Both the position numbers and the translations under genes were made by a program. From assembly GCA_002010045.1 (NCBI GenBank), contig MTMJ01000022.1, positions 18,832 to 82,831 of the forward strand: a DNA stretch of 64,000 bases, read 5' to 3'. This document shows positions 2,785 through 48,228 of this stretch, in pieces (positions within the stretch are counted from its first letter, which is position 1; each line of letters starts with the position of its first letter). The notes under the pieces were generated by a model. That model worked only from the letters and a program-made list of their open reading frames with translations. It was not told where the DNA came from and ran no database searches. The DNA is from Archaeoglobus sp. JdFR-22. Lineage in GTDB: Archaea > Halobacteriota > Archaeoglobi > Archaeoglobales > Archaeoglobaceae.

Positions 2785-3978
2785 TTATGATACCTCAACA
2801 ATCCTTTCTTCTCTATACCCTGTAATAACCCTGAATTCTCCTCTTAACTCCCTGTCAAGTTCCTCATCCCCTGTATCCACCCGTAATTTATCAATTTTAC
2901 TCAATTTGTTGCGGGTAGAGATTACAATGATATTATCTCTACCAACCTCTCTTATAACTGCGGGACTTATCTGCTGGTTTCCTCTACCAAAAATAAATCC
3001 CTGACCTCCGATAGGAGTAACAATAATTTTTACCTTTTTACCTCGGATAATGGAAAGAATCTGCCCCTCATTAACGTCGCTTGCAATTATTTCACCATTC
3101 TGAGTAATGTCAACTCCGAGCAGGCTTTTATCAATTCCCATTATCTTACCCACTGCGTAAACGGTTGAACCCGGACACATGATGTAAATCTCTTCACCCA
3201 TCAATTCTGAGACATATTTTGCAATCTCATACTGGTTGTCCAATTCCTCAGCGGCAGATACACTTGCGATTTTTCTCGATTGAATGAATTCGGGGTCGTA
3301 AGGAGTTGGAGCATAACCATACAGCTTCGCTGTCAGCCTCCCCTTTCTGAATTCCTCTTCATCAATATCCATCACTTCAACCATACTCAAAGGTAAGCCC
3401 ATTCTGATGAATTTCTCAATTATTCTTACTCCAGCTTCAGGGTTAACAGCAAAAACTCCAGAGTACATCTTGACACCAGAGGGAATTCCCAGAACAGGCA
3501 CATTGTTCTTTAAGCCATTGAGAACATCTCTTGCAGTCCCATCTCCTCCGACAAACACAATGAGATTCACAGACATCTCAGAGAGCTCCGATGCCGCTCT
3601 GACAGTATCCTCAGAAGATGTTTTTGAGGATATTGAACCTACCACCTCTGGCTCAAATCCTGCCTCCACACATTCTTTCTCTCCCATCTCTCCCGGATAG
3701 GTTATCAGTCGAAAGGCATTTTTTAGATGGTGAAGTTTTTTTAAGGTCTCAACAGCCCTCAGAGGAGACACCGGTTTTGCACCCAGTCTGATTGCTTCTT
3801 CAAGTACTCCATCAGTCCCCTTCAATCCAACCCTTCCACCCATTCCTGCTATGGGATTAACAATTAAACCAATTTTCAACCTCTCTTTTGCTCTTGAGTA
3901 ATCTTGATATCCATGAGCAACTCCAAAACAACGCAGAGCTTTGAGGACTTCCTGAACATCATCTTCCATTTTCACCAC
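2785..3978 (-). CDS. ATP-NAD kinase-like protein (COG3199 type)
   Basis: 397 aa; NPIAGMGGRVGLKGTDG and VGGDGTARDV motifs typical of the NAD kinase / diacylglycerol kinase fold. Confidence 0.6.
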   Translation of the reverse strand: MVKMEDDVQEVLKALRCFGVAHGYQDYSRAKERLKIGLIVNPIAGMGGRVGLKGTDGVLEEAIRLGAKPVSPLRAVETLKKLHHLKNAFRLITYPGEMGEKECVEAGFEPEVVGSISSKTSSEDTVRAASELSEMSVNLIVFVGGDGTARDVLNGLKNNVPVLGIPSGVKMYSGVFAVNPEAGVRIIEKFIRMGLPLSMVEVMDIDEEEFRKGRLTAKLYGYAPTPYDPEFIQSRKIASVSAAEELDNQYEIAKYVSELMGEEIYIMCPGSTVYAVGKIMGIDKSLLGVDITQNGEIIASDVNEGQILSIIRGKKVKIIVTPIGGQGFIFGRGNQQISPAVIREVGRDNIIVISTRNKLSKIDKLRVDTGDEELDRELRGEFRVITGYREERIVEVS

Positions 3979-4087
3979 AGTACCTACAGCTTTACACCAC
4001 TATACCCATAATTATAGATTATACTTTTTTCTGGAGATTAAGCTAATAAACATTAACTTTTTAAAGTTTTAGGTTACTCAGTCATCC

Positions 4088-5479
4088 ATGACTACCAAGA
4101 TACTGTTGAGTGAAGAAGACATACCAAAGGAATGGTACAATATAAACCCCGACCTTCCGAAACCGTTGCCACCACCGATCGACCCCGGAACTCACGAACC
4201 CATTAAACCCGAAGTGCTTGAGAGAGTATTTGCAAAAGAACTGTTGAAACAGGAAATGAGTCAGGAACGCTGGATACCGATTCCCGAGGAGGTCAGAGAG
4301 ATTTACCAGATCTGGAGACCAACTCCGCTGATAAGGGCAAAGAGACTTGAAAAACTTCTGAAAACTCCGGCGAAGATTTACTACAAATATGAAGGTGTAA
4401 GCCCTCCCGGCTCCCACAAACCCAATACAGCAGTTCCACAGGCTTACTACAATGTTAAACAGGGTATTGAGAAGCTCACAACTGAGACCGGGGCTGGACA
4501 GTGGGGTAGCTCACTTGCTTTCGCTGGAAAGATGTTTGACATTGACATCACCGTTTACATGGTAAAGATCAGTTACGAGCAGAAGCCATACCGGAAGAGT
4601 ATGATGCATGCATGGGGGGCTGACGTCACTCCAAGCCCCAGCAACAGAACGAATTTTGGCAGAAATATGCTTAAAAAGGACCCTAACCATCCGGGAAGTC
4701 TTGGTATAGCAATCAGTGAGGCAATAGAGGATGCAGTAACACACGACAATGTGAGATACACTCTCGGAAGTGTTCTCGGACATGTACTTCTGCACCAGAC
4801 AGTTCAGGGACTTGAGGCAAAGAAGCAGTTTGAGATGATAGATGAATATCCTGATATAGTGGCAGGTTGTGTTGGAGGTGGAAGCAGCTTTTCTGGATTG
4901 AGTTTTCCATTCTATTATGACAAGATAACTGGAAAAGCACCTAAAGATGTAAAGTTTGTGGCAACAGAACCCACTTCATGTCCAACTCTGACCAAAGGAA
5001 TCTACACTTATGACTTTGGCGACACAGCAAACATGACACCTCTACTGCCGATGTATTCTCTTGGATCTGATTTTGTTCCAGCACCTATCCACGCAGGGGG
5101 GTTGAGATACCATGGAGATGCGCCCTCTCTCTGCCTTATGGTAAAAGAAGGTGTTATTGAGGCAAAGGCGTATGATCAGGTGTCTGTATTCGATGCCGCT
5201 GCAATGTTTGCAATGAGTGAAGGAACCATTCCGGCACCTGAGCCTTCTCACACAATACGGTATGTCATAGACGAAGCATTGAGATGCAAAGAATCCGGGG
5301 AAGAAAAGGTAATTCTGTTCAACCTCTGTGGACATGGACACTTTGACATGGGAGCATATGATGAGTACTTCGAGAACAGACTGAAGCCGTGGGAATATCC
5401 ACAGGAAAAGGTTGAAGAATCGATTAAAAAGCTACAGGAGAAATTTCCGTGGGTTAAAGACCTGCCATACTTAAAATAA
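4088..5479 (+). CDS. trpB2: TrpB2-type tryptophan synthase beta-like PLP enzyme
   Basis: 463 aa; N-terminal [15 protein letters not shown] signature of TrpB2 and a long PLP-fold body; stand-alone, with no trpA adjacent. Confidence 0.85.
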
Positions 5480-30389: not shown

Positions 30390-30439
30390 TACCAAAAATG
30401 TTAAATTAATCCACATACAAAGAAAAATTGGTGAATATT

Positions 30440-30679
30440 ATGAAATCAGGAGTAGAAGTTAGAAAGCTGGATAAACAGGGTAGGCTAATTATACCAAAAG
30501 ATTGGAGAAGGAGCGAGCTTAAAGATGTTCAGGAGGTTTTTATCCTGAAAGAGAAAGGTTATTTGAAGATAATTCCCAAGAAAAAAGTTGACTTAAAAAA
30601 ATTCTTTGATAGTGTTGACTTGGGGGAAAACTTGGACGAATGGGATGAGTTCGAGGAGAGATTCCATGAGGTTCCTTGA
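30440..30679 (+). CDS. vapB: AbrB/SpoVT-family antitoxin VapB
   Basis: KLDKQGRLIIPKDWR swapped-hairpin motif; start set at the first ATG of the track ORF. Confidence 0.7.
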   Translation: MKSGVEVRKLDKQGRLIIPKDWRRSELKDVQEVFILKEKGYLKIIPKKKVDLKKFFDSVDLGENLDEWDEFEERFHEVP

Positions 30680-31091
30680 TGCTAATGTTTTTATTTATTC
30701 ATTCTATAAACCTAAAGGCAAACTTTCAGAGAAACAGTTAATGATGAAGAAATCAGCAAAGAAGATAATAGAGAGTATAAACGATGGAAAAGAAGATGTT
30801 ATAACAACAGTTGTTCATCTTTCAGAGGTCGCAAACATACTTAAAAGATCATTAAAATCGAGCGATCTTCAAGAAATTTTAATGTCTCTCTACTTTTTGG
30901 AGAATGTAACAATCCAAGATGTAAGTACCAATGACTATCTTGCTGCTATCGATTTGATTTCAGAACTGGGGCTGGATCCAAATGATTGTCTTGCGGTGAG
31001 AGTTATGAGGGAGAATGAAGTAGATGAGATATATACCTTCGACAAGGGTTTTGAGAGAGTTAGAGGGATAACAAGACTCCCGGAATTCTAA
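30666..31091 (+). CDS. vapC: PIN-domain toxin VapC
   Basis: MRFLDANVFIY N-terminus (first acidic PIN residue) and a later D near the C-terminus (TFDKGF); overlaps vapB by 14 nt. Confidence 0.75.
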   Translation: MRFLDANVFIYSFYKPKGKLSEKQLMMKKSAKKIIESINDGKEDVITTVVHLSEVANILKRSLKSSDLQEILMSLYFLENVTIQDVSTNDYLAAIDLISELGLDPNDCLAVRVMRENEVDEIYTFDKGFERVRGITRLPEF

Positions 31092-37999: not shown

Positions 38000-39385
38000 A
38001 TGATGGAATGGGATAGGTCAAAAGTTTACACAGAAGATAAATTAAGATTTCTCAAAGAGGATGAGACAATAATCGATTTAGCTTTAGTTATGCTAAAGAT
38101 ACTTTCAAAATACGAGTCAGAACAAAGTACTGGTGTAAAGGAAGAGAGGTATAAGAATATACACGCATGCTTAGAGACTCATTCAGATAAACTCGATGAG
38201 TTTGAAATGATGACAAAAGAACTGCATGGATATTTACAAAAAGCTAAAGAAAGTATCTACAGTAAGTCGTTGTATATCAATCAAGATACGAATATTGAGG
38301 AAGTTAAAAGCTATTTTATTAGAATTTTTAGAGAAATTGCACCATATATCAAAGAAGCGAGAAAAATTATTGAGAATTTGGAGGAATTAAATTCTGAATT
38401 ATTGTACTGCTTTTTTAACCATGAAACGTGGGGTTCGACTTGGTGTATCGAGTTATATATACCAAAAAAGATTTTACTTTCAAGCTCTGAAAAGGAGAGA
38501 CTTGAATTAGTCATAAATAGGATTCTTAACTTTAAGCTTTTTAATCAACCAAAGTTGATTGATTATGTAATATGGGATTATGGCAATGAGCTTTACTATA
38601 AATTGACGCCTGAAGAGTTCGACAATTACATCTTCAAAGATAAAGATTATTTTTCAATAAATTCAAAAATTTGTCATGAGATTTTCAATCATTTGAGAGA
38701 AGTCATAAAAAACCTGAGAGATGCTTGTAGAGTCGTTCTTCGGGAAATAGAAAGGTATAGAAGAGAAGTTGAAACATTTAGTGATGAAGTTTTTAAGAGA
38801 GTCCTAAACAATCTGATGGCTAAGCTAGAATCAAATGAGAACTACAATACAATTTTGCAAAAGAACATAATACTACGTAAAAAATGCATCACACTCATTA
38901 GACTTATTTACGATTACAAAAAAGAGGTAGAAGAAAGTAGATGGAAAGAAACAATGCATTTCAATGATGAGAATGATTTTAGGGATAATCTATTTAATTA
39001 CTTAAATCAGGTCAGAGGAGAAAAAATCTGGGTAATGAAGGAGACTCAAGTATCTCGTGGAAGAATTGATTTACTTATAAATAACGATATTGTTTTTGAG
39101 CTCAAACTCGAAAAAAATCCTGCTAAAATGAATAATTTCTCTGGTTTGTCTCAGATAAAAGAATACATGGCAAGTACCTCAAGTAAAATTGGGTTCTTTG
39201 TTATAATGGATATATCAAAGCAAACTAAGCCGTTAGCAAGCTTAGAAAACTACTTTAATGCGAAGGTTGAAAAAGGTGGTAGATGTGTATCTCATGAAGA
39301 AGACGAACATCCCATAGGTATTATAACTGTTCTAATCTTTGGCGGAGAGAGGGCAAGACCATCAGAATTGAGAGAATCGAGGTGA
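38000..39385 (+). CDS. uncharacterised 461-aa protein with C-terminal PD-(D/E)xK / RecB-like nuclease motifs
   Basis: GRIDLLINNDIVFELKLEK followed by SQIKEY (D...ELK...QxxxY). The helical N-terminal 320 aa has no recognisable family. The gene ends 4 nt before the methylase start. Confidence 0.5.
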   Translation: MMEWDRSKVYTEDKLRFLKEDETIIDLALVMLKILSKYESEQSTGVKEERYKNIHACLETHSDKLDEFEMMTKELHGYLQKAKESIYSKSLYINQDTNIEEVKSYFIRIFREIAPYIKEARKIIENLEELNSELLYCFFNHETWGSTWCIELYIPKKILLSSSEKERLELVINRILNFKLFNQPKLIDYVIWDYGNELYYKLTPEEFDNYIFKDKDYFSINSKICHEIFNHLREVIKNLRDACRVVLREIERYRREVETFSDEVFKRVLNNLMAKLESNENYNTILQKNIILRKKCITLIRLIYDYKKEVEESRWKETMHFNDENDFRDNLFNYLNQVRGEKIWVMKETQVSRGRIDLLINNDIVFELKLEKNPAKMNNFSGLSQIKEYMASTSSKIGFFVIMDISKQTKPLASLENYFNAKVEKGGRCVSHEEDEHPIGIITVLIFGGERARPSELRESR

Positions 39386-39389
39386 TAAA

Positions 39390-42161
39390 ATGAAGGAATT
39401 TCCAATCAAACGTTCATTCATAGAAGAAACTTTTCCCGTAAAAGAAGTAAGCGAGGAGTCAGCGAGAGAGAAGAACATAAGGCACGGACACATCTCAACT
39501 CTCCATATCTGGTGGGCGAGAAGACCTTTAGCCTCATCAAGAGCAACAGCCTATGCAGCTTTAATTCCTGTCCCGGATAGCATTGAGGAAATTGAAAAGA
39601 AGAAGAATTTCATCGCTGAGCTTTGCAAATGGGAGAACTCTTTAAATCCAGCATATATTGAGAAACCAAGGAAAGATATCAGGGATGCGTTAGGTTACAC
39701 GCCAAGAGTTTTAGACCCGTTTGCTGGTGGTGGTGCAATTCCCTTAGAAGCTCTAAGGCTTGGTTGTGAAACTTATGCTTCCGATTACAACCCTGTTGCT
39801 GTCCTGATTCTGAAGGCTGTTCTTGAATATCCTCAGAAATATGGAAAGCGAAGAGGGATTGAAGATTTTGGGAATAAAGAAGAGAGTAGAGAGAATTATG
39901 ACCTCGTAGCAGATGTGAAGAAGTGGGGAGAGTGGGTTTTGAATGAAGCTAAGAAGGAGATTGGAAGATTTTATCCCGCTGAGGAAGACGGCTCAATTCC
40001 AGTTGGCTATATCTGGGCAAGAACAATTCCATGCCAGAATCCTTCTTGCAATGCTGAGATTCCTCTGATGAGGCAGTTCTGGTTAGCAAAGAAGAGTAAC
40101 AAGAAAGTGGCGTTGTATCCTTATGTTGAGGGTAAAGAAGTGAAGTTTAAGGTGGTTGGAAATGGCTATGAAGAGATGCCCGATAACTTTGACCCCTCCA
40201 AAGGGACTGTTAAGGGTGCAATAGCAACCTGCTTGATTTGCGGTTCAACAGTAGATGCAAACACGACAAGAAGGTTGTTTCAGGAAGGTAAGGCTGGACA
40301 GAGAATGGTAGCTGTTGTTTTACATAACAAAAAGAAGAGAGGTAAGTTTTATCGGATTGCAGATGAGAATGATGTGGAAGTTTTCAAGCAGGCTGAGAAA
40401 TATTTGCAAAGAAAGGTTGAGGAGCTGAGAGAAAAATGGAATATTGAGCCGATTCCTGATGAGCCTTTACCTACCCCAGATATGCAAGGATTCAACAGTA
40501 AAGGTGATTTGTTTTGGAATTTTGCTCCAATTGTAGTTTATGGAATGAAAAAGTGGGGGGATTTGTTTAATTCAAGGCAGAAGCTTTCTTTAATCACTTT
40601 TGTGGATAAGGTCAGGGAAGCTTACTTCAGGATGGTTGAAGTTTACGATGAGGAGTATGCAAGAAGTGTTGTTACGTATTTGGGTTTGCTTTTTGATAAA
40701 GTTGTTAGTAAATCAAATTCCCTTGCAAGATGGAATAATATTCCCGAAAAAATTGAGTACATCTTTTCACGGCAAGCCATGTCTATGTTATGGGATTATG
40801 TTGAAAGTAATATTTTCGGGAAATCTGCTGGTAGTTGGCAAGAATATAAAGAATACACTTTGAAGATGATTGATAGTACCTCACAAAGCTCTATAAAGTC
40901 CGCAATACCAATTCAAGCATCAGCTACCGAACTCCCTTTCCCAAACAATTACTTCGATGCAGTTTTCACAGACCCACCATATTACGACAACGTACCTTAT
41001 TCAGACCTATCTGAATTCTTTTATGTATGGCTTAAAAGAACGATTGGTGAACATTATCCTGATTTATTTTCTACTCCTCTAACTCCAAAGTCAAAAGAAA
41101 TCATTGCAAGCTTACCCCTCCTAAGAGGGATGTCAAAAGATAAAGCAGAAAAATTGATTAAAACTACTAAACCTCAAAAATATTTCGAAAATATGCTCAA
41201 AAAATCATTTCAGGAAATCTACAGAATTTTAAAGCCCAACGGCATCGTAGTAATCGTCTACGCCCACAAAACAGCATCCGGCTGGGAAACGCTCATCAAC
41301 TCTTTACTTGACTCGGGCTTGGTCATAACAGCCTCATGGCCAATAAACACGGAGATGAAAGCAAGATTGAGAGCAAAAGAGTCAGCAGCATTGGCATCAT
41401 CAATCTACATTGTGGCAAGAAAAATGCAACGCAGTGAAACAGGCTGGTTCAACGAAGTAAAAGAAGAAATCAAAAATCATCTCTACAAAAAGCTTGAAAG
41501 ATTATGGAAAGAGGGAATAAGCGGTGCTGACTTCTTCATATCGGCAATAGGTTCAGCAATTGAAGTATTCGGGAAATATGAGAAAGTTATGGATTATGAA
41601 GGAAACATAATCAGGGCTGACAGATTGCTGGATTATGTGAGAGAGATTGTGATGGACTACACTGTGAGACAAATCCTCCACAACGGTATAGCTGCTGAAT
41701 TGAGCCCATTAACACGATTCTACATTCTATACAGGTGGAGTTACCAGAATGCAAAGGTTCACTTTGATGAAGCTCGCAAATTAGCTCAGAGTGTTGGTGT
41801 TGATTTGGAAAAGGAGTGGAATAAGGGATTCATTGAGAAGCAGAAGGAGTTTATCTATCTTTTAGCCCCCAATGAGAGGAAACTTGATGAACTGAAAAGT
41901 ACTGAACTGATAGACGTTCTGCACAAAGTTCTGCAGCTTTGGGAGAAAGGAAGAAGAGAAGAAATAACTGAGACACTGCAAGAGACTGGCTTCATGAGGG
42001 ACAGCTTTTTCAGGGTTGCTCAGGCAATTTCTGAGTGCTTATCCATCGATAGCAAGGAGAAGAAGTTACTGGATGGATTTCTGACGGGGAAGGAGAAGAT
42101 GATTAGTGAGGCGAGGGCGAAGGATACGAAGCTTATGGATTTTATTGGTGATGAGGAATGA
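39390..42161 (+). CDS. DUF1156/COG1743-type Zn-ribbon DNA methyltransferase (N6-A or N4-C class)
   Basis: 923 aa; STLHIWWARRPL, DPFAGGGAIPLEA (SAM motif I), CQNPSC...CLICGS zinc ribbon, FTDPPYYDN (motif IV). Confidence 0.85.
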   Translation: MKEFPIKRSFIEETFPVKEVSEESAREKNIRHGHISTLHIWWARRPLASSRATAYAALIPVPDSIEEIEKKKNFIAELCKWENSLNPAYIEKPRKDIRDALGYTPRVLDPFAGGGAIPLEALRLGCETYASDYNPVAVLILKAVLEYPQKYGKRRGIEDFGNKEESRENYDLVADVKKWGEWVLNEAKKEIGRFYPAEEDGSIPVGYIWARTIPCQNPSCNAEIPLMRQFWLAKKSNKKVALYPYVEGKEVKFKVVGNGYEEMPDNFDPSKGTVKGAIATCLICGSTVDANTTRRLFQEGKAGQRMVAVVLHNKKKRGKFYRIADENDVEVFKQAEKYLQRKVEELREKWNIEPIPDEPLPTPDMQGFNSKGDLFWNFAPIVVYGMKKWGDLFNSRQKLSLITFVDKVREAYFRMVEVYDEEYARSVVTYLGLLFDKVVSKSNSLARWNNIPEKIEYIFSRQAMSMLWDYVESNIFGKSAGSWQEYKEYTLKMIDSTSQSSIKSAIPIQASATELPFPNNYFDAVFTDPPYYDNVPYSDLSEFFYVWLKRTIGEHYPDLFSTPLTPKSKEIIASLPLLRGMSKDKAEKLIKTTKPQKYFENMLKKSFQEIYRILKPNGIVVIVYAHKTASGWETLINSLLDSGLVITASWPINTEMKARLRAKESAALASSIYIVARKMQRSETGWFNEVKEEIKNHLYKKLERLWKEGISGADFFISAIGSAIEVFGKYEKVMDYEGNIIRADRLLDYVREIVMDYTVRQILHNGIAAELSPLTRFYILYRWSYQNAKVHFDEARKLAQSVGVDLEKEWNKGFIEKQKEFIYLLAPNERKLDELKSTELIDVLHKVLQLWEKGRREEITETLQETGFMRDSFFRVAQAISECLSIDSKEKKLLDGFLTGKEKMISEARAKDTKLMDFIGDEE

Positions 42162-43196
42162 GAATAGTTGTGCCAGATGTGGGGCATGGAAATTGTGTGA
42201 GTATTTTCAATGATGAGGCATCACTAATAGTAGATTGTGGTGCCGAAAACAATGATAAGGTTGAGAGTTTCTTTAATTTTGTTGAACTAAAGCTAAAAAA
42301 TTCGAAGAAAAGAGAACTGATTATAACGCATTACCATTTTGACCACTATAACCTTTTAAGCAAATTACCTCCAAGTTATTTTGAGAGAGTTTACTTACCT
42401 AAATTACCCCTGAAAGAGAGACGTCAGAGGCAATACGTGAATTTTTGGCTTTATCTATTGTTACAAGGTTCAAGAACTATCCCTTAATTCCTGAAATCTG
42501 GAGAGTTGCAAAAATAATTGTGCCTTAGCTAAGGGTGATAATTTAAGCACTATAAACAGAGAATGGGAAGTTTTATGGCCAGATTACAGTGCTATTGATA
42601 GAAAAAACAAAAGACGCATTAAGAACCTTCGAAAGGAGATTGAAGAAATAAAAGGGATGTTAGATGAGAAGTCTCTGGAAGAATTTGAGTATTGGTATGA
42701 AAAACTTAGCCATGATAATGAGAATTTCGAGTTTGGAGGTTGGATTAAATCCGTAAACGAGAATCAAACAGATCCAAGAATTATAGAATCGTTGGGGAAA
42801 TTAGAAAGAATATTTAGGCCTTTAGCCAACAGAGCATCACTTGTTACAAGAGAGATCCAAGGCGAATTTCTCTTTACAGGAGATGTAGATGGAACTGTGC
42901 TAAATAAACATCTCAATTTTAGTGATCTTGAGTATTTCTTAGTGGAGGCGCCTCACCATGGAGGATTTTATGGCGAGGTTTTCAATAACGTAGAAACAGA
43001 GATATTAGTAATTTCAAGAAAATCTACTTACCGACCAAGAGCAGAATTTTTCCGTGATGTAATTTGGAGAATTCTAATGGATGCTGGAAAACTCGGAACC
43101 TGTATTTTAGAGAAAGGAGTGAAAAAGGGGCGAATCCACGCGATAAACATGAGGAGTGATAAAGCATTTGCCTACTTCTTAATATACTTAATTTAA
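42158..43196 (+). pseudogene. metallo-beta-lactamase-fold hydrolase, disrupted by at least two frameshifts
   Basis: The N-terminal piece has THYHFDHY (HxHxDH) and the C-terminal piece has EAPHHGG. Between 42415 and 42540 the reading shifts through three frames (...YLPKLP / ERETSEAIREFLALSIVTRFKNYPLIPEIWRVAK / NCALAKGDNLSTINREWEVLWP...). The start overlaps the methylase stop (ATGA). Confidence 0.65.
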
Positions 43197-43246: not shown

Positions 43247-44404
43247 TTAGCTCAAAAAGTAATCCAGAGTCCAGTTCAGCGTCTTTCTTGCAGCTTCAAC
43301 TTTTTTAATTTCCTCAGCAACATATCTTTTTCCTGAAACGTAATCCATAACGTTATCGTTCTCAATTTGTTCTCTCAAAATCATTGTTTCTATTGCTATT
43401 TGCTCAGAATTAAGTAGTAGTTGAGCTTTAATCTTCTTGTCGATGGATTCGGTAAAAACGCTCATTGGGATGGAAGAATCTTTAGGATATATCCTTTTTA
43501 GCTCCTTTTGCCCTTCAACTCTGAAATAGCCATAAGTCGCTCTGCTAAATAACCTGAACAAGTTTTTAGCCCTCTCTCGAATTCTTGCCCAGTACTCATC
43601 ATCATTTTTCGGACCTCTAGGACGGATATGTCTGTTACCAAGGCTGTCAACACCAAAACCGTAGGAAAGAATGTCTTTAGCTGGTATTACAGGCTCGTTT
43701 CTTAAAAGTCTTCCCATATTGACATTGAAAGCATGAACGAAAGGAGTAACCTCTTCTTTATAAATTATACGTTGTATCTGTTGCAAGTTCTGAATAAGAC
43801 TTGTAGGCGTCCTTCCCCCAAAATCTATACAGAATGATTGCACTCCTCTGCTAAGATAAAATTCAATGAGTGGTTTTATGAATTCAAATGGTATGTCAAA
43901 TTGAATACATCCCATGACAGGCTTATCACCGAAGGATTCCGCCTTTTCCACAAAATTACTCAGAAATTCCATATGCTTTTCAAAAGCAGCATAATCAGCA
44001 TTCTTTAATTCCTGAAAAGCTGGTACAACAATAAAGTCTGAATACGATTTTTCAGTGGCAATCAGGAATTCCAGCTCAGTATCGGATGGTTTCTCATCTT
44101 TGTAGCTTGCAAGAAAAATATTCACATCCTTTTTATTTGATTTCTTGATTAAACTATTAAACCAATAATTTAATTCTCTTTGAGCTCCATTGTTTTTTAT
44201 TAAATCGCTAAGGTAACCTTTATCGAAGGTTTTGTATATTTCATTTACCTTGGGCTCAGTGTACCTTAGGCTCACCTTAGGCAAAAACTTTGAAAGATCA
44301 AAGGCTTTCACAGGAGTTTTTACTCTCTTTTTACCAACTTTCAATTCGCCAAATCTGAAGAAACTCCTTTTATCAAATGCAATCAGGTTATATTGTGCTT
44401 CCAC
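43247..44404 (-). CDS. uncharacterised 385-aa protein (alpha/beta-barrel-like; weak TGT/DpdA-like motif pattern)
   Basis: Long clean ORF on the opposite strand. Motifs GELKVGKKRVKTPVKAF, CIDFGGRTP, VHAFNVNMG and GFGVDSLGN occur in an order and spacing reminiscent of tRNA-guanine transglycosylase barrels. No Zn motif. Confidence 0.45.
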   Translation of the reverse strand: MEAQYNLIAFDKRSFFRFGELKVGKKRVKTPVKAFDLSKFLPKVSLRYTEPKVNEIYKTFDKGYLSDLIKNNGAQRELNYWFNSLIKKSNKKDVNIFLASYKDEKPSDTELEFLIATEKSYSDFIVVPAFQELKNADYAAFEKHMEFLSNFVEKAESFGDKPVMGCIQFDIPFEFIKPLIEFYLSRGVQSFCIDFGGRTPTSLIQNLQQIQRIIYKEEVTPFVHAFNVNMGRLLRNEPVIPAKDILSYGFGVDSLGNRHIRPRGPKNDDEYWARIRERAKNLFRLFSRATYGYFRVEGQKELKRIYPKDSSIPMSVFTESIDKKIKAQLLLNSEQIAIETMILREQIENDNVMDYVSGKRYVAEEIKKVEAARKTLNWTLDYFLS

Positions 44405-44454
44405 AAAAAAATTATTAAAAAACTTTTTTATAATTGTTTTGGTGATGCAGAAAT

Positions 44455-45060
44455 ATGGAAATTAACGCAGACAAAATCAAAATGAAATTAAGAGAGATTG
44501 ATCCAATCAAAGCTTATATTTTGCTCCTTCTGAGAGAAAAAAATTTTGAAGCCGTGAAGGGTAAGCTATGGTTACAGAAAGAGATGTTTATTATACTTTC
44601 AAATTTAGATAAACTCAAAAACTTCTTGGATTTTGAACCGTACTTCTTTGGACCTCACAGCGAAAGTGTTGATGTAGCACTTGAGCAGTTAGAAAAATCT
44701 GGCCTTGTGAGATTTGAGGGAAACAAGATTTCGCTTACTCACGAGGGGGAGGGGCTTGCAAATGTCCTCGCAAGTAAGGCAAGCAGTGAAAACATTGAGC
44801 TTGTAAGGGAAATCAAAGAGCTATTGAATGACTTATCAAAAGATGAACTGCTGGCATTTGTATATTTCACTTTTCCAGAAATGACCAAAGAATCTTTAGA
44901 AATCGAAAATATCAAGAGGAGAAGAAAGAAGCTTGCACTAAAACTCTACAGAAAAGGAAAGATAAGCCTTGCTAAAGCAGCCGAAATTTCTGGATTGAGT
45001 ATAGAAGAATTTATGAGTATATTAAGAAAAGAGCAGATTGGAGTCCAGATAAATCCATAG
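44455..45060 (+). CDS. antitoxin-like protein: wHTH/Panacea-like N-terminal domain fused to UPF0175 C-terminal HTH
   Basis: 201 aa; the C-terminal KLYRKGKISLAKAAEISGLSIEEFMSILRKEQI is typical of UPF0175; the N-terminal KGKLWLQKEMFIIL...FGPHSESV is reminiscent of SocA/DUF4065. Confidence 0.5.
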   Translation: MEINADKIKMKLREIDPIKAYILLLLREKNFEAVKGKLWLQKEMFIILSNLDKLKNFLDFEPYFFGPHSESVDVALEQLEKSGLVRFEGNKISLTHEGEGLANVLASKASSENIELVREIKELLNDLSKDELLAFVYFTFPEMTKESLEIENIKRRRKKLALKLYRKGKISLAKAAEISGLSIEEFMSILRKEQIGVQINP

Positions 45061-45068
45061 GTGATGTA

Positions 45069-45542
45069 TTGAAGGCTATTCTAGATTCATCAGTACTAAT
45101 AGCCTTTTTTACGGAACTTAAAGACCCTAAATATTTGCTATCACTGACTTATTTTGGTTATGAACTCCATATACCAAATGGTGTCGCTATTGAACTAAAA
45201 AGAGGGATTACATTCCAGCAGTTATCACCATATCTGAGCAATTTTAATCAACTATCAGAAGTTGACCAAATTGATTTGTATCCTTTTAAAAAAAGATTTC
45301 CTTACTTAGCACAGGGAGAACTCGAAGTTCTCTTCTGGGGACTAAGGTTTAAAAGGGGCAAAGAGCAATACATATGCGTGCTTGATGATAAAAAAGCAAG
45401 AAACGCAGCCGAAAAACTTCGGTTAAATTACACTGGAACTATAGGCATTTTGAATCTTCTCGAAGAATTGGACTTCTTAGCTTCCAGAGAGAGAAAAAGC
45501 ATTATTGAGGAACTCAGAAAAGCAGGTTTCAGAGTGCCATAG
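45069..45542 (+). CDS. DUF3368-type PIN-like toxin
   Basis: 157 aa; ILDSSVLIAF, QGELEVL, VLDDKKARNAAEKL, GTIGILN; TTG start 9 nt after the upstream stop. Confidence 0.65.
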   Translation: MKAILDSSVLIAFFTELKDPKYLLSLTYFGYELHIPNGVAIELKRGITFQQLSPYLSNFNQLSEVDQIDLYPFKKRFPYLAQGELEVLFWGLRFKRGKEQYICVLDDKKARNAAEKLRLNYTGTIGILNLLEELDFLASRERKSIIEELRKAGFRVP

Positions 45543-45615: not shown

Positions 45616-48228
45616 GTGATATGTATGAGGCCATTCCACATGATTGCTCTACCTCATAAAGACATACTCGAAGGCAGACTTACAATGGACGTTTTTGCTG
45701 CTGACTTATGGAATGTTTTTAAAGGTGAGGCAGTTGATGATTACAAAAATCCTGATTCTTTCTTTCAAAAAACCTATCCAACCTTTGGATTGAGAAACTT
45801 GCTGAAAATAGCAGGAAAGAGGTTGAGAAGTGAGGGTGGAGACTCTGTCATCCAGATTCAGACTCCTTTTGGTGGAGGTAAGACTCATTCTCTGATCGCA
45901 CTGTATCATGCCTTCTCAACTGGAAAGTACGTTGAGGATGCAATTAAAGCAAATGTTGTCGTAATTGTTGGAACTGCTATCAGCCCAAAGGAGGAGAACG
46001 GGAAGATAACGGGAACAATCTGGGGAGAAATTGAAAGACAGCTTGAAGGTGAAGTAAAAGAGCTTGACCTGTCTGTTTCACCCGGTAGAGATAAGCTTGA
46101 AGAATTGTTCAGAAAACATCAACCACTCCTTATTCTGATGGATGAAGTTCTTCAATATACTACCAAAGCTGCTGGGATAAAAGTTGGAGACTCAAATCTT
46201 GCCTCGCAAACAATGGCTTTTATGCAGGAATTAACAGAGTGTGTTAAGTCCTTGAAGAAAACTCTCCTCGTTCTAACACTACCATCAAGCATTATTGAGC
46301 ACTACGACGAGAGTGCGGAGAAGCTGTTTGTTCAATTGCAGAAGGTTTCGGGAAGAATGGAGAAAATCTACACTCCAGTTGCTGGTGAGGAAATTTACGA
46401 GGTTGTGAGGAGAAGACTTTTCAGGGAAATCGATAATGAAAGAGCAAGAGAAGTTGTTGAAGAATTCGTGAATTATTACGAGAGAGAAGGAATAATTCAG
46501 GAGAAAGCAGAATACAGAGATAAAATGATGAAGAGCTACCCTTTCCATCCTGAAGTTATTGATGTCCTTCACAACAGATGGGGAAGCATTCCAACTTTCC
46601 AGAGAACAAGAGGTGTTTTGAGAATACTTTCTCTTGCAATCTACAGACTAAAGGATTCATCCATACCACTCATACGCCCATGTGATTTGGATTTAACATA
46701 CAGTGAGCTTGCTGAAGAGCTCATCAAACATATAGGGAGAGAATATGAGAGCGTTTTGTCAGCAGATATAACAGGAAGTAATGCTAATGCAAAGAAAGTT
46801 GATAAATCAACTGGAGTTACATACCAAGGCTTAAATCTTGGAACGAAGCTTGCTACTGCCATCTTCCTCTACTCATTCTCAGGTGGAGAGAAAGGAGCAA
46901 GTTTGGGTGACCTCAAACTTGCATGTTCTGACACAAACGTACCATCAAGCGTGATAACTGATGTGATTGAAGGATTGAAGAGCAATCTTTTCTACCTTCA
47001 ATCTGACATTACAAGATACTTTTTCACTTCCCAGCCAAACTTAAACAGCATTCTTGTGACAAGAATGTCCGAAATAGATAACGGAGTGATAAAAGCCGCA
47101 ACCAAATCATTGACTGAGAGGTTCTCAGGTAAGGATATTCCTGTTTACATCTGGCCTTCAAAACCAAAAGATATTCCGGATTCAGAGGAATTGAAGCTCA
47201 TAATACTGCCTGAAAATGATGGAAAGTTGTGCAAGAATATCCTTGAGAATTACGGTGAGAATCCGAGGGTTAACAAGAATACCCTATTTTTCCTGTGCCC
47301 GATGGAGTCTGAGAGATTCTCCTTTGAGAACTGGCTCAGAAAACTGCTCGCATGGAGAAGAATAGATGAAGATAAATCGCTTAATCTTACCGAACTGCAA
47401 CAGAAAGAAGTAAAGAAGAATTTGGGAGAGATGAGCAAAGCTGAAAGAATTCAGCTGAGGAGTTTTTACAGGCTTGTTTATGTTCCATCAAAAGACGGAT
47501 TCAGAGAGATCGATTTGGGAATTCCTGTTTTTGGTAAAACAGAGACATTGAGCAGGGAAGTAATTAACAGACTAAAAGCTGAAGGTGAAATTGTTGAAAA
47601 ACTCTCTCCATTACTGATTTCTGAGAAATACCTGCGAGATAAAGACTATGTTGAGACGGGCAGGCTCTTCAAAGCCATGCTCTCAACCCCGGGAGAACCG
47701 AGAGTTACTAAAAGTAAGTTCATCAGTTCAATCAGAGATGGCGTTAAACAGGGTATTTTTGGCTCTGGAATTCTCAGGGATGGCAGTGTGGAATGTTTGA
47801 AGTTTAAAGAGAATACAGAAGTCCTGCTGAGCGATTATGAAGTGATAATAAGAAAGGAGATTTGTGAGAAGCCCAAAGCGGAAGAAGGAAGGGTTGAAGA
47901 GGAATTAGAAGGATATGAGGAAGTAGAAGAGGAAGAGAAAGAAACTGGTATTCTGGTAGAAGATGAGGATAAGGAGAAACCAAAGCCTCCTGTGGTAATA
48001 CCCAAATTCAAGAAGGTAAAGCTCTCTGTTGAAGTTCCGAGAGGTAAGTTCTCAGAATTTTACACTGGAGTTATCCTGCCCATTGAAAAATCCTTTGGTG
48101 AAGCTGAAATAAAAATTGAAATTGAGGCTAAGAATGGTGAGATTCCAAAGAGTGAGTATGAAAATAAGGTAAAAGAAACACTACTTCAGATTAATGCAAA
48201 ATTTAAGGAAGAAGAGTTGGAGGAGTGA
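45616..48228 (+). CDS. DUF499/COG1483-type P-loop ATPase
   Basis: 870 aa; [10 protein letters not shown]-terminus, [16 protein letters not shown] (Walker A), PLLILMDEV (Walker B), acidic E-rich linker before a C-terminal domain. Confidence 0.8.

Follow-up and report, generated by a model that had tools for sequence, protein, structure and literature searches.

Immunity has lately been found to employ enzymes of the tRNA-guanine transglycosylase (TGT) superfamily in ways that were not foreseen: DpdA works in DNA, Cap10 works on proteins, and a regulatory role is proposed for TIM-B. TGT and DpdA have in common three invariant aspartates (D102, D156 and D280 in Zymomonas mobilis TGT; D95, D130 and D256 in DpdA) and a CxCx2Cx22H zinc site, and the N-terminal sheet that serves as a lid is found in TGTs and not in DpdA (PMC10164549). 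Negative regulation has been proposed for the P4 beta protein (PF14350) family, TIM-B, in a preprint of October 2026 (10.64898/2026.10.19.760177), and has been shown for Cap10 of type IV CBASS (cyclic-oligonucleotide-based antiphage signalling system; 10.1101/2025.04.06.647259). Among toxin-antitoxin (TA) systems, the literature finds the UPF0175 domain only next to COG2405 PIN proteins and takes it for the antitoxin of these PINs (PMC5499597, PMC2701414). Those COG2405 systems on record that have three components use a helix-turn-helix (HTH) protein and a DUF955 protease (PMC5499597). The locus reported here lies in a 64,000-nucleotide stretch of Archaeoglobus sp. JdFR-22 DNA (contig MTMJ01000022.1, positions 18,832 to 82,831), called the window below, in which a gene for a 385-residue protein with a predicted TGT-type barrel is attached to a UPF0175-PIN pair. 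The three genes stand at about an even chance of being a mobile TA-like or abortive-infection back-up cassette, made up of a DarG-like/UPF0175 protein (component A), a PIN protein (component B) and the barrel. Literature searches, which covered open-access text, met no description of the barrel family or of the triad. Even on a cautious reading, what is gained is a testable operon structure for a gene family covered by no curated library. The family adds to its superfamily a third lineage in immunity, invisible to sequence searches, whose partners are constant and uncommon and whose members number in the hundreds in archaea, where characterised defence systems are few. The genes of the cassette are as follows.

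43247..44404, minus strand: the barrel gene ('fam'), GTG start, 385 aa, encoding a predicted TGT-fold (beta/alpha)8 barrel protein of isoelectric point (pI) 9.1.
44405..44454, no strand: an AT-rich spacer of 50 bp that separates the diverging genes for the barrel and component A, aaaaaaattattaaaaaactttttt ataatt..., presumed to hold two back-to-back archaeal promoters.
44455..45060, plus strand: component A, 201 aa, with an acidic N-domain (about residues 1-145, pI 5.2) and a basic C-terminal part holding a UPF0175 HTH antitoxin domain (150-196).
45069..45542, plus strand: component B, 157 aa, a DUF3368/COG2405 PIN-like nuclease (PADLOC PDC-S70 E 8e-16, weak Pfam DUF3368).

The open reading frame (ORF) at 43247-44404 is a real and intact gene. 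Its GTG start is upheld by close homologues, which open MEVYYNLIA... or MEAYYNLIA..., and the window copy has kept all of the family's conserved residues with the sole exception of Q168, where P is usual. As an earlier note made from the sequence had stated, it is the sole minus-strand gene of its island: no other long minus-strand ORF is present between about 31.6 and 49.3 kb, or from the gene for prolyl-tRNA synthetase (31614) to that for an aldolase (48432). That note overlooked the two genes to the right of the ORF (44455-45542), which belong with it. Its description of the protein as an orphan stands in so far as no curated model matches, and falls in so far as the relatives number in the hundreds (see below).

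The linkage of the three genes was examined in loci gathered by exact-protein look-ups, a scan of GTDB contigs and whole-genome searches, with ORFs scored by hidden Markov models (HMMs) built from the first seven contexts. The set comprises 43 distinct, de-duplicated loci, 39 of which have enough flanking DNA to be judged. A component A gene (about 190 aa, usually with the UPF0175 domain fused) adjoins the barrel gene in 37 of these 39, and a DUF3368/COG2405 PIN-like gene (about 160 aa) is also present in 34-35 of them. Most often A, B and barrel follow one another in this order on one strand, in frames that overlap or almost abut; in the clade of the window the barrel gene is inverted and divergent from A. 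The triad is retained in remote 440-aa subfamilies, and the three genes co-diverge (Spearman 0.71-0.93, from HMM scores).

Four loci (L077, L079, L086 and L087) have the barrel and the A N-domain only, with no DUF3368 PIN. In another, L078, which likewise has the barrel and the N-domain only, a weak PF01850-type PIN match (E 0.0035, below the cut-off) takes the place of DUF3368. L087 is from the window's own genome (contig C44): it is a second, very divergent core pair (3463-4041 and 4020-5192, both plus strand) with no PIN, encoding a 192-aa A-N-domain-like protein and a 390-aa barrel-like protein with SP instead of TP, directly beside the hsdS and hsdM genes of a type I restriction-modification system and a VapBC-like pair. 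In L082 (G384:C7, 3798-4705) the barrel gene is interrupted by about 900 bp of inserted DNA, and the neighbouring A and PIN genes are intact. The N-domain-only loci point to the barrel and the A N-domain as the core pair. Taken with the known pairing of UPF0175 and PIN, these loci and L082 point to two pairs, one of N-domain and barrel, the other of UPF0175 and PIN, which a fused antitoxin links. From the single disrupted locus L082, the barrel seems to be neither a brake on the PIN nor its antitoxin. [In a further locus, L093 (G192:C24, 2564-14778), at least three more UPF0175-like/PIN-like pairs lie within 12 kb of the cassette, in a dense TA array.]

The C-terminal part of component A is assigned by Pfam (UPF0175, E 9e-12). 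Its N-domain matches the toxin-binding C-terminal domain of DarG in two HMM libraries (PADLOC 2e-6; NCBIfam NF048014 2e-5), each over about 140 aligned residues. The PADLOC DarG model matches five of six A proteins tested (2e-6 to 3e-4); NF048014 gives 23.9 bits with the window protein, against a full-length cut-off of 250 bits. The AlphaFold2 (AF2) model of component A has a pLDDT (predicted local distance difference test score) of 88.7, and the only PDB match that Foldseek finds for it below 1e-3 is 7yk3_B (E 8e-4, probability 1.00), which is DarG as it stands in the Mycobacterium tuberculosis DarTG complex; the runner-up is about 100-fold weaker. According to the title of Deep et al. 2023 as cited in PMC11825919, the C-terminal domain of DarG mimics single-stranded DNA and neutralises DarT in this way. 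The A N-domain is acidic, as expected of a nucleic-acid mimic, and is so in 12 of 12 A sequences (pI 4.3-5.6, the UPF0175 part being at 9.1-10.6). However, the cassette is unlike DarTG in that component A (201 aa) gives no macrodomain match, a PADLOC scan of the window's neighbouring proteins finds no DarT ADP-ribosyltransferase, and the partner enzyme is a predicted triosephosphate isomerase (TIM) barrel.

In component B the acidic motifs ILDSS, GELEV and LDD are conserved in an alignment of seven contexts, and DUF3368 is annotated in all six contexts fetched. The families of the A C-domain and of B, and the order of antitoxin then PIN, are those of the predicted type II TA pair UPF0175(COG2886)-DUF3368(COG2405), PDC-S70. 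The cassette departs from that pair in the extra acidic N-domain of about 140 aa on its antitoxin and in the third gene of about 385 aa that is always attached, and is unlike the HTH/DUF955 variants.

The barrel protein can be placed only by its predicted fold. A Pfam scan gives a sub-threshold chance match, and searches of PADLOC, NCBIfam and PDB sequences (by phmmer, and with a 93-sequence profile against PDB) give no match, whether with the single protein or with the 93-member alignment; the family is thus without a Pfam, NCBIfam or PADLOC model and is unnamed. An AF2 model built from a shallow 10-sequence alignment (pLDDT 80.4; predicted template-modelling score, pTM, 0.81) has three N-terminal antiparallel strands (3-10, 17-23 and 26-30), then eight beta/alpha units, then a hairpin at 284-295 (strands 284-287 and 292-295) and a helical C-terminal region; its sole low-confidence loop is 251-266. 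The earlier note had guessed at a TGT-type barrel and had proposed a Foldseek comparison of a predicted structure, and the guess is borne out at the level of fold: of the best 50 PDB matches listed, all 50 are TGTs, Z. mobilis TGT and murine QTRT1 among them (E 1.3e-6 to 1.7e-5, probability 1.00, template-modelling (TM) score 0.50-0.60, about 400-440 alignment columns, root-mean-square deviation (rmsd) 6-8 A), a count to be read with the very many PDB entries that TGT has. In a viral fold library the two best matches, both weak, are an unnamed 379-aa phage protein (E 4.5e-3) and a phage 'queuine tRNA-ribosyltransferase' (E 5.7e-3).

The guess had been founded on four short strings, which are indeed found in the order given (GELKVGKKRVKTPVKAF at 20-36, CIDFGGRTP at 192-200, VHAFNVNMG at 223-231 and GFGVDSLGN at 249-257). 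The last three had been put about 30 and about 20 residues apart; the measured distances are 31 and 26. The strings are not arbitrary, as they hold top-conserved residues of the family (T30, P31, D194, N227, G231, G251, D253 and G256). The likeness to TGT that was seen in them is real at the level of the predicted fold and statistically undetectable by sequence. PF01702, the TGT model, matches neither the barrel protein nor any of the 93 members, and in a search of the genome at E<=10 it skips the ORF. With hhalign, local and global, the comparison of the family with an alignment of 31 TGT and ArcTGT sequences, E. coli TGT being the anchor, is not significant (probability <1%). The single weak local match (E 0.067), S122-D123...MG.IP to E. 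coli TGT S136-D137...FGIIQ, is unusable for residue mapping.

What the family shares with TGT (bacterial TGT, QTRT1 and ArcTGT) is the predicted barrel with its N-terminal sheet lid, a T-P motif leading into beta1 (T30-P31 comes after the three-strand sheet, comparable to the 'TPxFMPV' motif of TGT), a conserved Asp on beta8, a hairpin and helical extension past beta8 that fits the description of Ins8 in PMC10164549, a similar size (about 385 aa) and a basic character. It differs from TGT in its zinc site and, by strand order, in its active site. The earlier note was right that the zinc site is absent: CxCxxC occurs in 0 of 93 members. It had also pointed to the catalytic aspartates; of the three that are invariant in TGT, a plausible counterpart can be named for one only. 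By strand order, there is no conserved acid column at the end of beta3, where TGT has its general acid, or of beta4, where the guanine-reading Asp stands. D253, on beta8, could match the TGT nucleophile, in a mapping made by strand order and by-eye register. The family has conserved residues of its own instead (D194, N227, D244 and H259), and its genes are not housekeeping genes but parts of TA-like cassettes. By its predicted structure the family is a remote structural relative of TGTs, with a TGT-type N-terminal sheet and a C-terminal hairpin-helix extension. Since the fold match holds, PF01702 gives no match, the zinc site is absent and only one aspartate has a plausible counterpart, the barrel is best filed, on its model, as a TGT-fold protein with a rebuilt active site and not as a member of the TGT or DpdA family. 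[True TGTs are present elsewhere in the genome: PF01702 picks out a bacterial-type TGT of about 396 aa (E 2e-129), an ArcTGT and an ArcS-like gene, on contigs C2 (41577-42725) and C17 (2685-4717). An extra bacterial-type TGT is present in about 13 of 31 genomes sampled, the own genome and 30 relatives.]

A word-indexed search had yielded 10 relatives of the barrel protein. An exhaustive HMMER search gives at least 303 representative clusters (50% identity) at E<=1e-3, and 206 at E<=1e-10. Among 150 listed clusters, lengths are mostly 340-430 aa and the shorter ones look like fragments. In the 93 aligned members T30, P31, E55, P128, G165, P168, Y183, D194, N227 (100%), D244, G251, D253 (91%), G256, F286, Y291, N332, E339 and K359 are invariant or at least 90% conserved, and S122, D123, K161, R232, H259, R284 and Y293 are conserved in 61-89%. 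The conserved polar residues number about 25 in the 93 members, and in the predicted structure the conserved polar residues are at or near the C-terminal ends of the barrel strands. The median pI is 9.0, and the mean number of cysteines per protein is 2.65. The family is mostly archaeal, with carriers in Thermoproteota, ammonia-oxidising archaea and DPANN lineages, and one in a Terriglobia bacterium. Within the window's phylum its carriers are 29 of 401 genomes, from 21 of 121 genera, and several have remnants only; the cassette is on this count accessory and mobile. With its patchy spread, its frequent decay and its position in defence/TA islands, it behaves like a TA or abortive-infection element.

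In the window the cassette lies within a defence locus of another kind, the genes of which are as follows.

33153..36614, plus strand: HmaA, SNF2-type helicase with a C-terminal NOV_C nuclease-like domain (PADLOC HmaA E 1e-206; Pfam).
39390..42161, plus strand: HmaB, DUF1156 N6-adenine DNA methyltransferase (PADLOC HmaB E 2e-135; Pfam DUF1156).
45616..48228, plus strand: HmaC, DUF499 ATPase, immediately downstream of the cassette (Pfam DUF499 E 5e-48).

This is the full set of helicase, DUF1156 N6-methylase and DUF499 ATPase, though with the NCBIfam model DUF499_antiphage HmaC scores 170.5 bits, far under the curated cut-off of 1200 bits. In passages of PMC12839542 such triads are renamed DUF499-centred bacteriophage exclusion (BREX)-related systems, and BREX-related loci are said often to hold embedded back-up nucleases, PIN included. 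The window triad, with extra TA-type modules nested between its genes, is of this type; the module nested here is not one named in those passages of PMC12839542, and it is also found outside Hma loci. Annotation pipelines would score only the UPF0175/PIN pair of the accessory module that the window Hma locus carries.

Six loci have the cassette nested between core genes of Hma, and three arrangements occur among them. In the window HmaB is followed by the barrel gene in antisense, A and PIN in sense, and HmaC. In L088-L091 A and PIN are antisense and the barrel gene is immediately upstream of hmaB on the same strand, with gaps of a few codons; HmaA is on the far side in L088-L090 and was not found in the L091 region. 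In L078 the order is HmaB, barrel, A N-domain, the other PIN and HmaC. A maximum-likelihood tree places five of the nested copies in a single clade, along with two others of non-Hma or unknown context, and the sixth far away; the Hma-nesting label needs three changes on the tree, against 5.7 expected by shuffling. The association is genuine and had repeated origins, the tree calling for at least two to three independent events. No Hma gene is present in the fetched DNA of 33 of the 39 evaluable loci, many of them with flanks of 1.5 kb only, and on this count the cassette is autonomous. [Hma gene order is fluid in the clade of L088 and L091: about 1.3 kb lies between hmaB and the DUF499 gene in L088 (3453-4823), and in L091 (3311-6256) the DUF499 gene is convergent with hmaB.]

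A mechanism can be proposed for the cassette. It would consist of two toxin:antitoxin pairs linked by the fused antitoxin. The UPF0175 domain would neutralise the PIN RNase, and the acidic DarG-like domain would fill the nucleic-acid groove of the basic barrel and keep it off, so that we infer a nucleic-acid-directed enzyme held in check by a DarG-like domain. On loss or titration of A in infection, or on failure of the host system, both effectors would be freed. The target of the freed barrel may be a base-sugar bond of tRNA or DNA, with excision or exchange of the base: its chemistry would be glycosidic, with catalysis by the conserved D253 of beta8 together with D194, N227, D244 and H259. 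Insertion of 7-deazaguanine as a self mark would be no part of its action. The full form of this proposal, in which a TGT-derived barrel without zinc site and guanine-reading residues would be a base-excising or base-exchanging toxin on tRNA or DNA, of a chemistry new to TA and defence systems, held by a DarG-like nucleic-acid mimic and coupled to a PIN RNase by a fused double antitoxin, the two effectors serving as back-up to BREX-related (Hma) immunity, is decidedly more tentative than the cassette itself, and we would expect it to fail oftener than to hold. Were the barrel a toxin, it would be the first TA toxin on a transglycosylase fold, and the DarG-type neutralising domain would have a second client.

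Several points weigh against this proposal. The toxicity of the barrel, its neutralisation and its substrate are all inferred. The DarG similarity is modest (E 1e-3 to 1e-6, TM 0.49) and is in part that of a generic winged helix. The assignment of D253 as nucleophile rests on strand order and by-eye register, and D253 is within the low-confidence loop 251-266 of the model. As the profile-profile comparison with TGT is not significant, common descent, as against TIM-barrel convergence, is not proven. The argument that the barrel is not the brake of the PIN hangs on one locus, L082. The window's clade includes four loci whose barrel gene adjoins the hmaB start, and the barrel could work with the methylase and not as a toxin.

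That last arrangement favours the possibility, suggested in the earlier note, of a DpdA-like DNA transglycosylase. In this case the barrel would write a modified base (7-deazaguanine or other) into host DNA as a second self-mark beside Hma methylation. The barrel gene is directly before hmaB on the same strand with almost no gap in L088-L091 and directly after it in L078; in the window, however, it is on the strand opposite hmaB, and 33 of the 39 evaluable loci have no Hma gene in their fetched DNA, short as many flanks are. The TGT-type predicted fold and the basic character of the protein would suit a DNA-modifying enzyme, and DpdA offers the precedent of a TGT-superfamily barrel in a defence or conflict setting (the Dpd system; phage DpdA1-4) with a long insertion after beta8. 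Yet DpdA retains the three aspartates and the zinc site and is without the N-terminal sheet (PMC10164549), and the barrel family has the sheet, lacks the zinc site in 93 of 93 members and, by strand order, shows no conserved acid where beta3 and beta4 end, the places of the general-acid and guanine-reading Asp in TGT and DpdA (PMC10164549). preQ0 should be available: a search elsewhere in the genome, which the earlier note had proposed, finds QueC, on another contig, as well as ArcTGT and the bacterial-type TGT. A TGT is present in another BREX-related system (PMC12839542). DpdA, though, is linked to DpdB/DpdC or preQ0 genes, and the precomputed annotation available for six loci shows no QueC/D/E family (DpdB and DpdC were not specifically searched for). 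The invariant partner is antitoxin-like and not a restriction component, and the barrel gene decays freely. Another supposed support, a truncated EVE gene at the edge of the island, falls away, as PF01878 gives no match genome-wide at E<=1. Insertion of 7-deazaguanine into DNA, as first suggested, is not supported, in view of the missing zinc site, the two aspartates that lack a plausible counterpart, the annotation of six loci without QueC/D/E families, the TA-type partners and the TGT-like N-terminal sheet, and a DpdA-like role of any kind is improbable.

A regulatory role like that proposed for TIM-B is somewhat less improbable, though still unlikely. The barrel would then be no effector: a constant nucleobase-derived product or modification would keep the PIN off, and infection would interrupt this and release the PIN. 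In the preprint (10.64898/2026.10.19.760177) TGT-related barrels are coupled to varied effectors and HTH proteins, and the likeness extends to a TGT-related barrel without canonical tRNA role in a small operon with an effector, often with HTH, for TIM-B and Cap10 alike. The C-terminal hairpin-helix feature of TIM-B is shared by the barrel model, and Cap10, a TGT-family protein that is also without the zinc site, acts on a protein partner (10.1101/2025.04.06.647259). That PIN accompanies the barrel in most loci (34-35 of 39) would suit such control, but the PIN already has its canonical UPF0175 partner, pairs of barrel and A N-domain occur without any PIN, and the disruption of the barrel in L082 with PIN and A intact suggests, from this one locus, that the barrel is not a brake on the PIN. 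There is no sequence or profile similarity to PF14350: this model is silent in 301 genomes of the phylum, the own genome included and carriers of the barrel family among them, and also in 14 of 14 controls, so that only the own-genome miss is informative, and hhalign against a P4-beta profile (118-sequence alignment) finds nothing. No P4 beta protein is named among the top viral fold matches, several of which are unnamed. A DarG-like/UPF0175 protein with a DUF3368 PIN is not among the listed partners of TIM-B. The least probable of the alternatives, and a faint one, is that the protein is an ordinary small-molecule TIM-barrel enzyme or an inactive scaffold, its TGT likeness coming from general TIM-barrel resemblance and the over-representation of TGT in PDB. 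The TM scores of only 0.50-0.60 at an rmsd of 6-8 A, the non-significant TGT profile comparisons and the model's origin in a 10-sequence alignment would all be expected of that. However, Foldseek gives a probability of 1.00 across about 400-440 columns, the model has every one of the add-ons specific to TGT (N-terminal sheet lid, TP motif at the sheet end, hairpin and helices past beta8), and a viral library that is not TGT-saturated still has a TGT-like protein among its two best. Strict linkage to TA-type genes and defence operons is unlike metabolic genes, and about 25 conserved polar residues in 93 members speak against an inactive scaffold.

Some further features of the Hma operon in the window may be recorded. 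A tRNA-Leu(TAA) gene of 87 nt (33137-33223, plus strand, by ARAGORN) overlaps the TTG start listed for the hmaA ORF; because of this overlap, and as the PADLOC HmaA match begins at residue 59, hmaA probably has its true start downstream of this tRNA gene. The window holds two MazE/AbrB-PIN pairs (36828-37638 and 30428-31091, both plus strand), one of them nested between hmaA and hmaB. The 461-aa protein encoded at 38000-39385 (plus strand) has a weak PD-(D/E)XK and LmuA-like C-terminus, in the stretch of lowest GC in the window (0.30). After hmaB, with a 4-bp overlap, comes an apparently split gene of metallo-beta-lactamase fold (42158-42487 and 42657-43196, plus strand, 109 + 179 aa). Its fragments were considered as a part of the cassette and dropped, there being no counterpart in the other Hma-nested loci. 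Every junction of the window Hma operon is interrupted.

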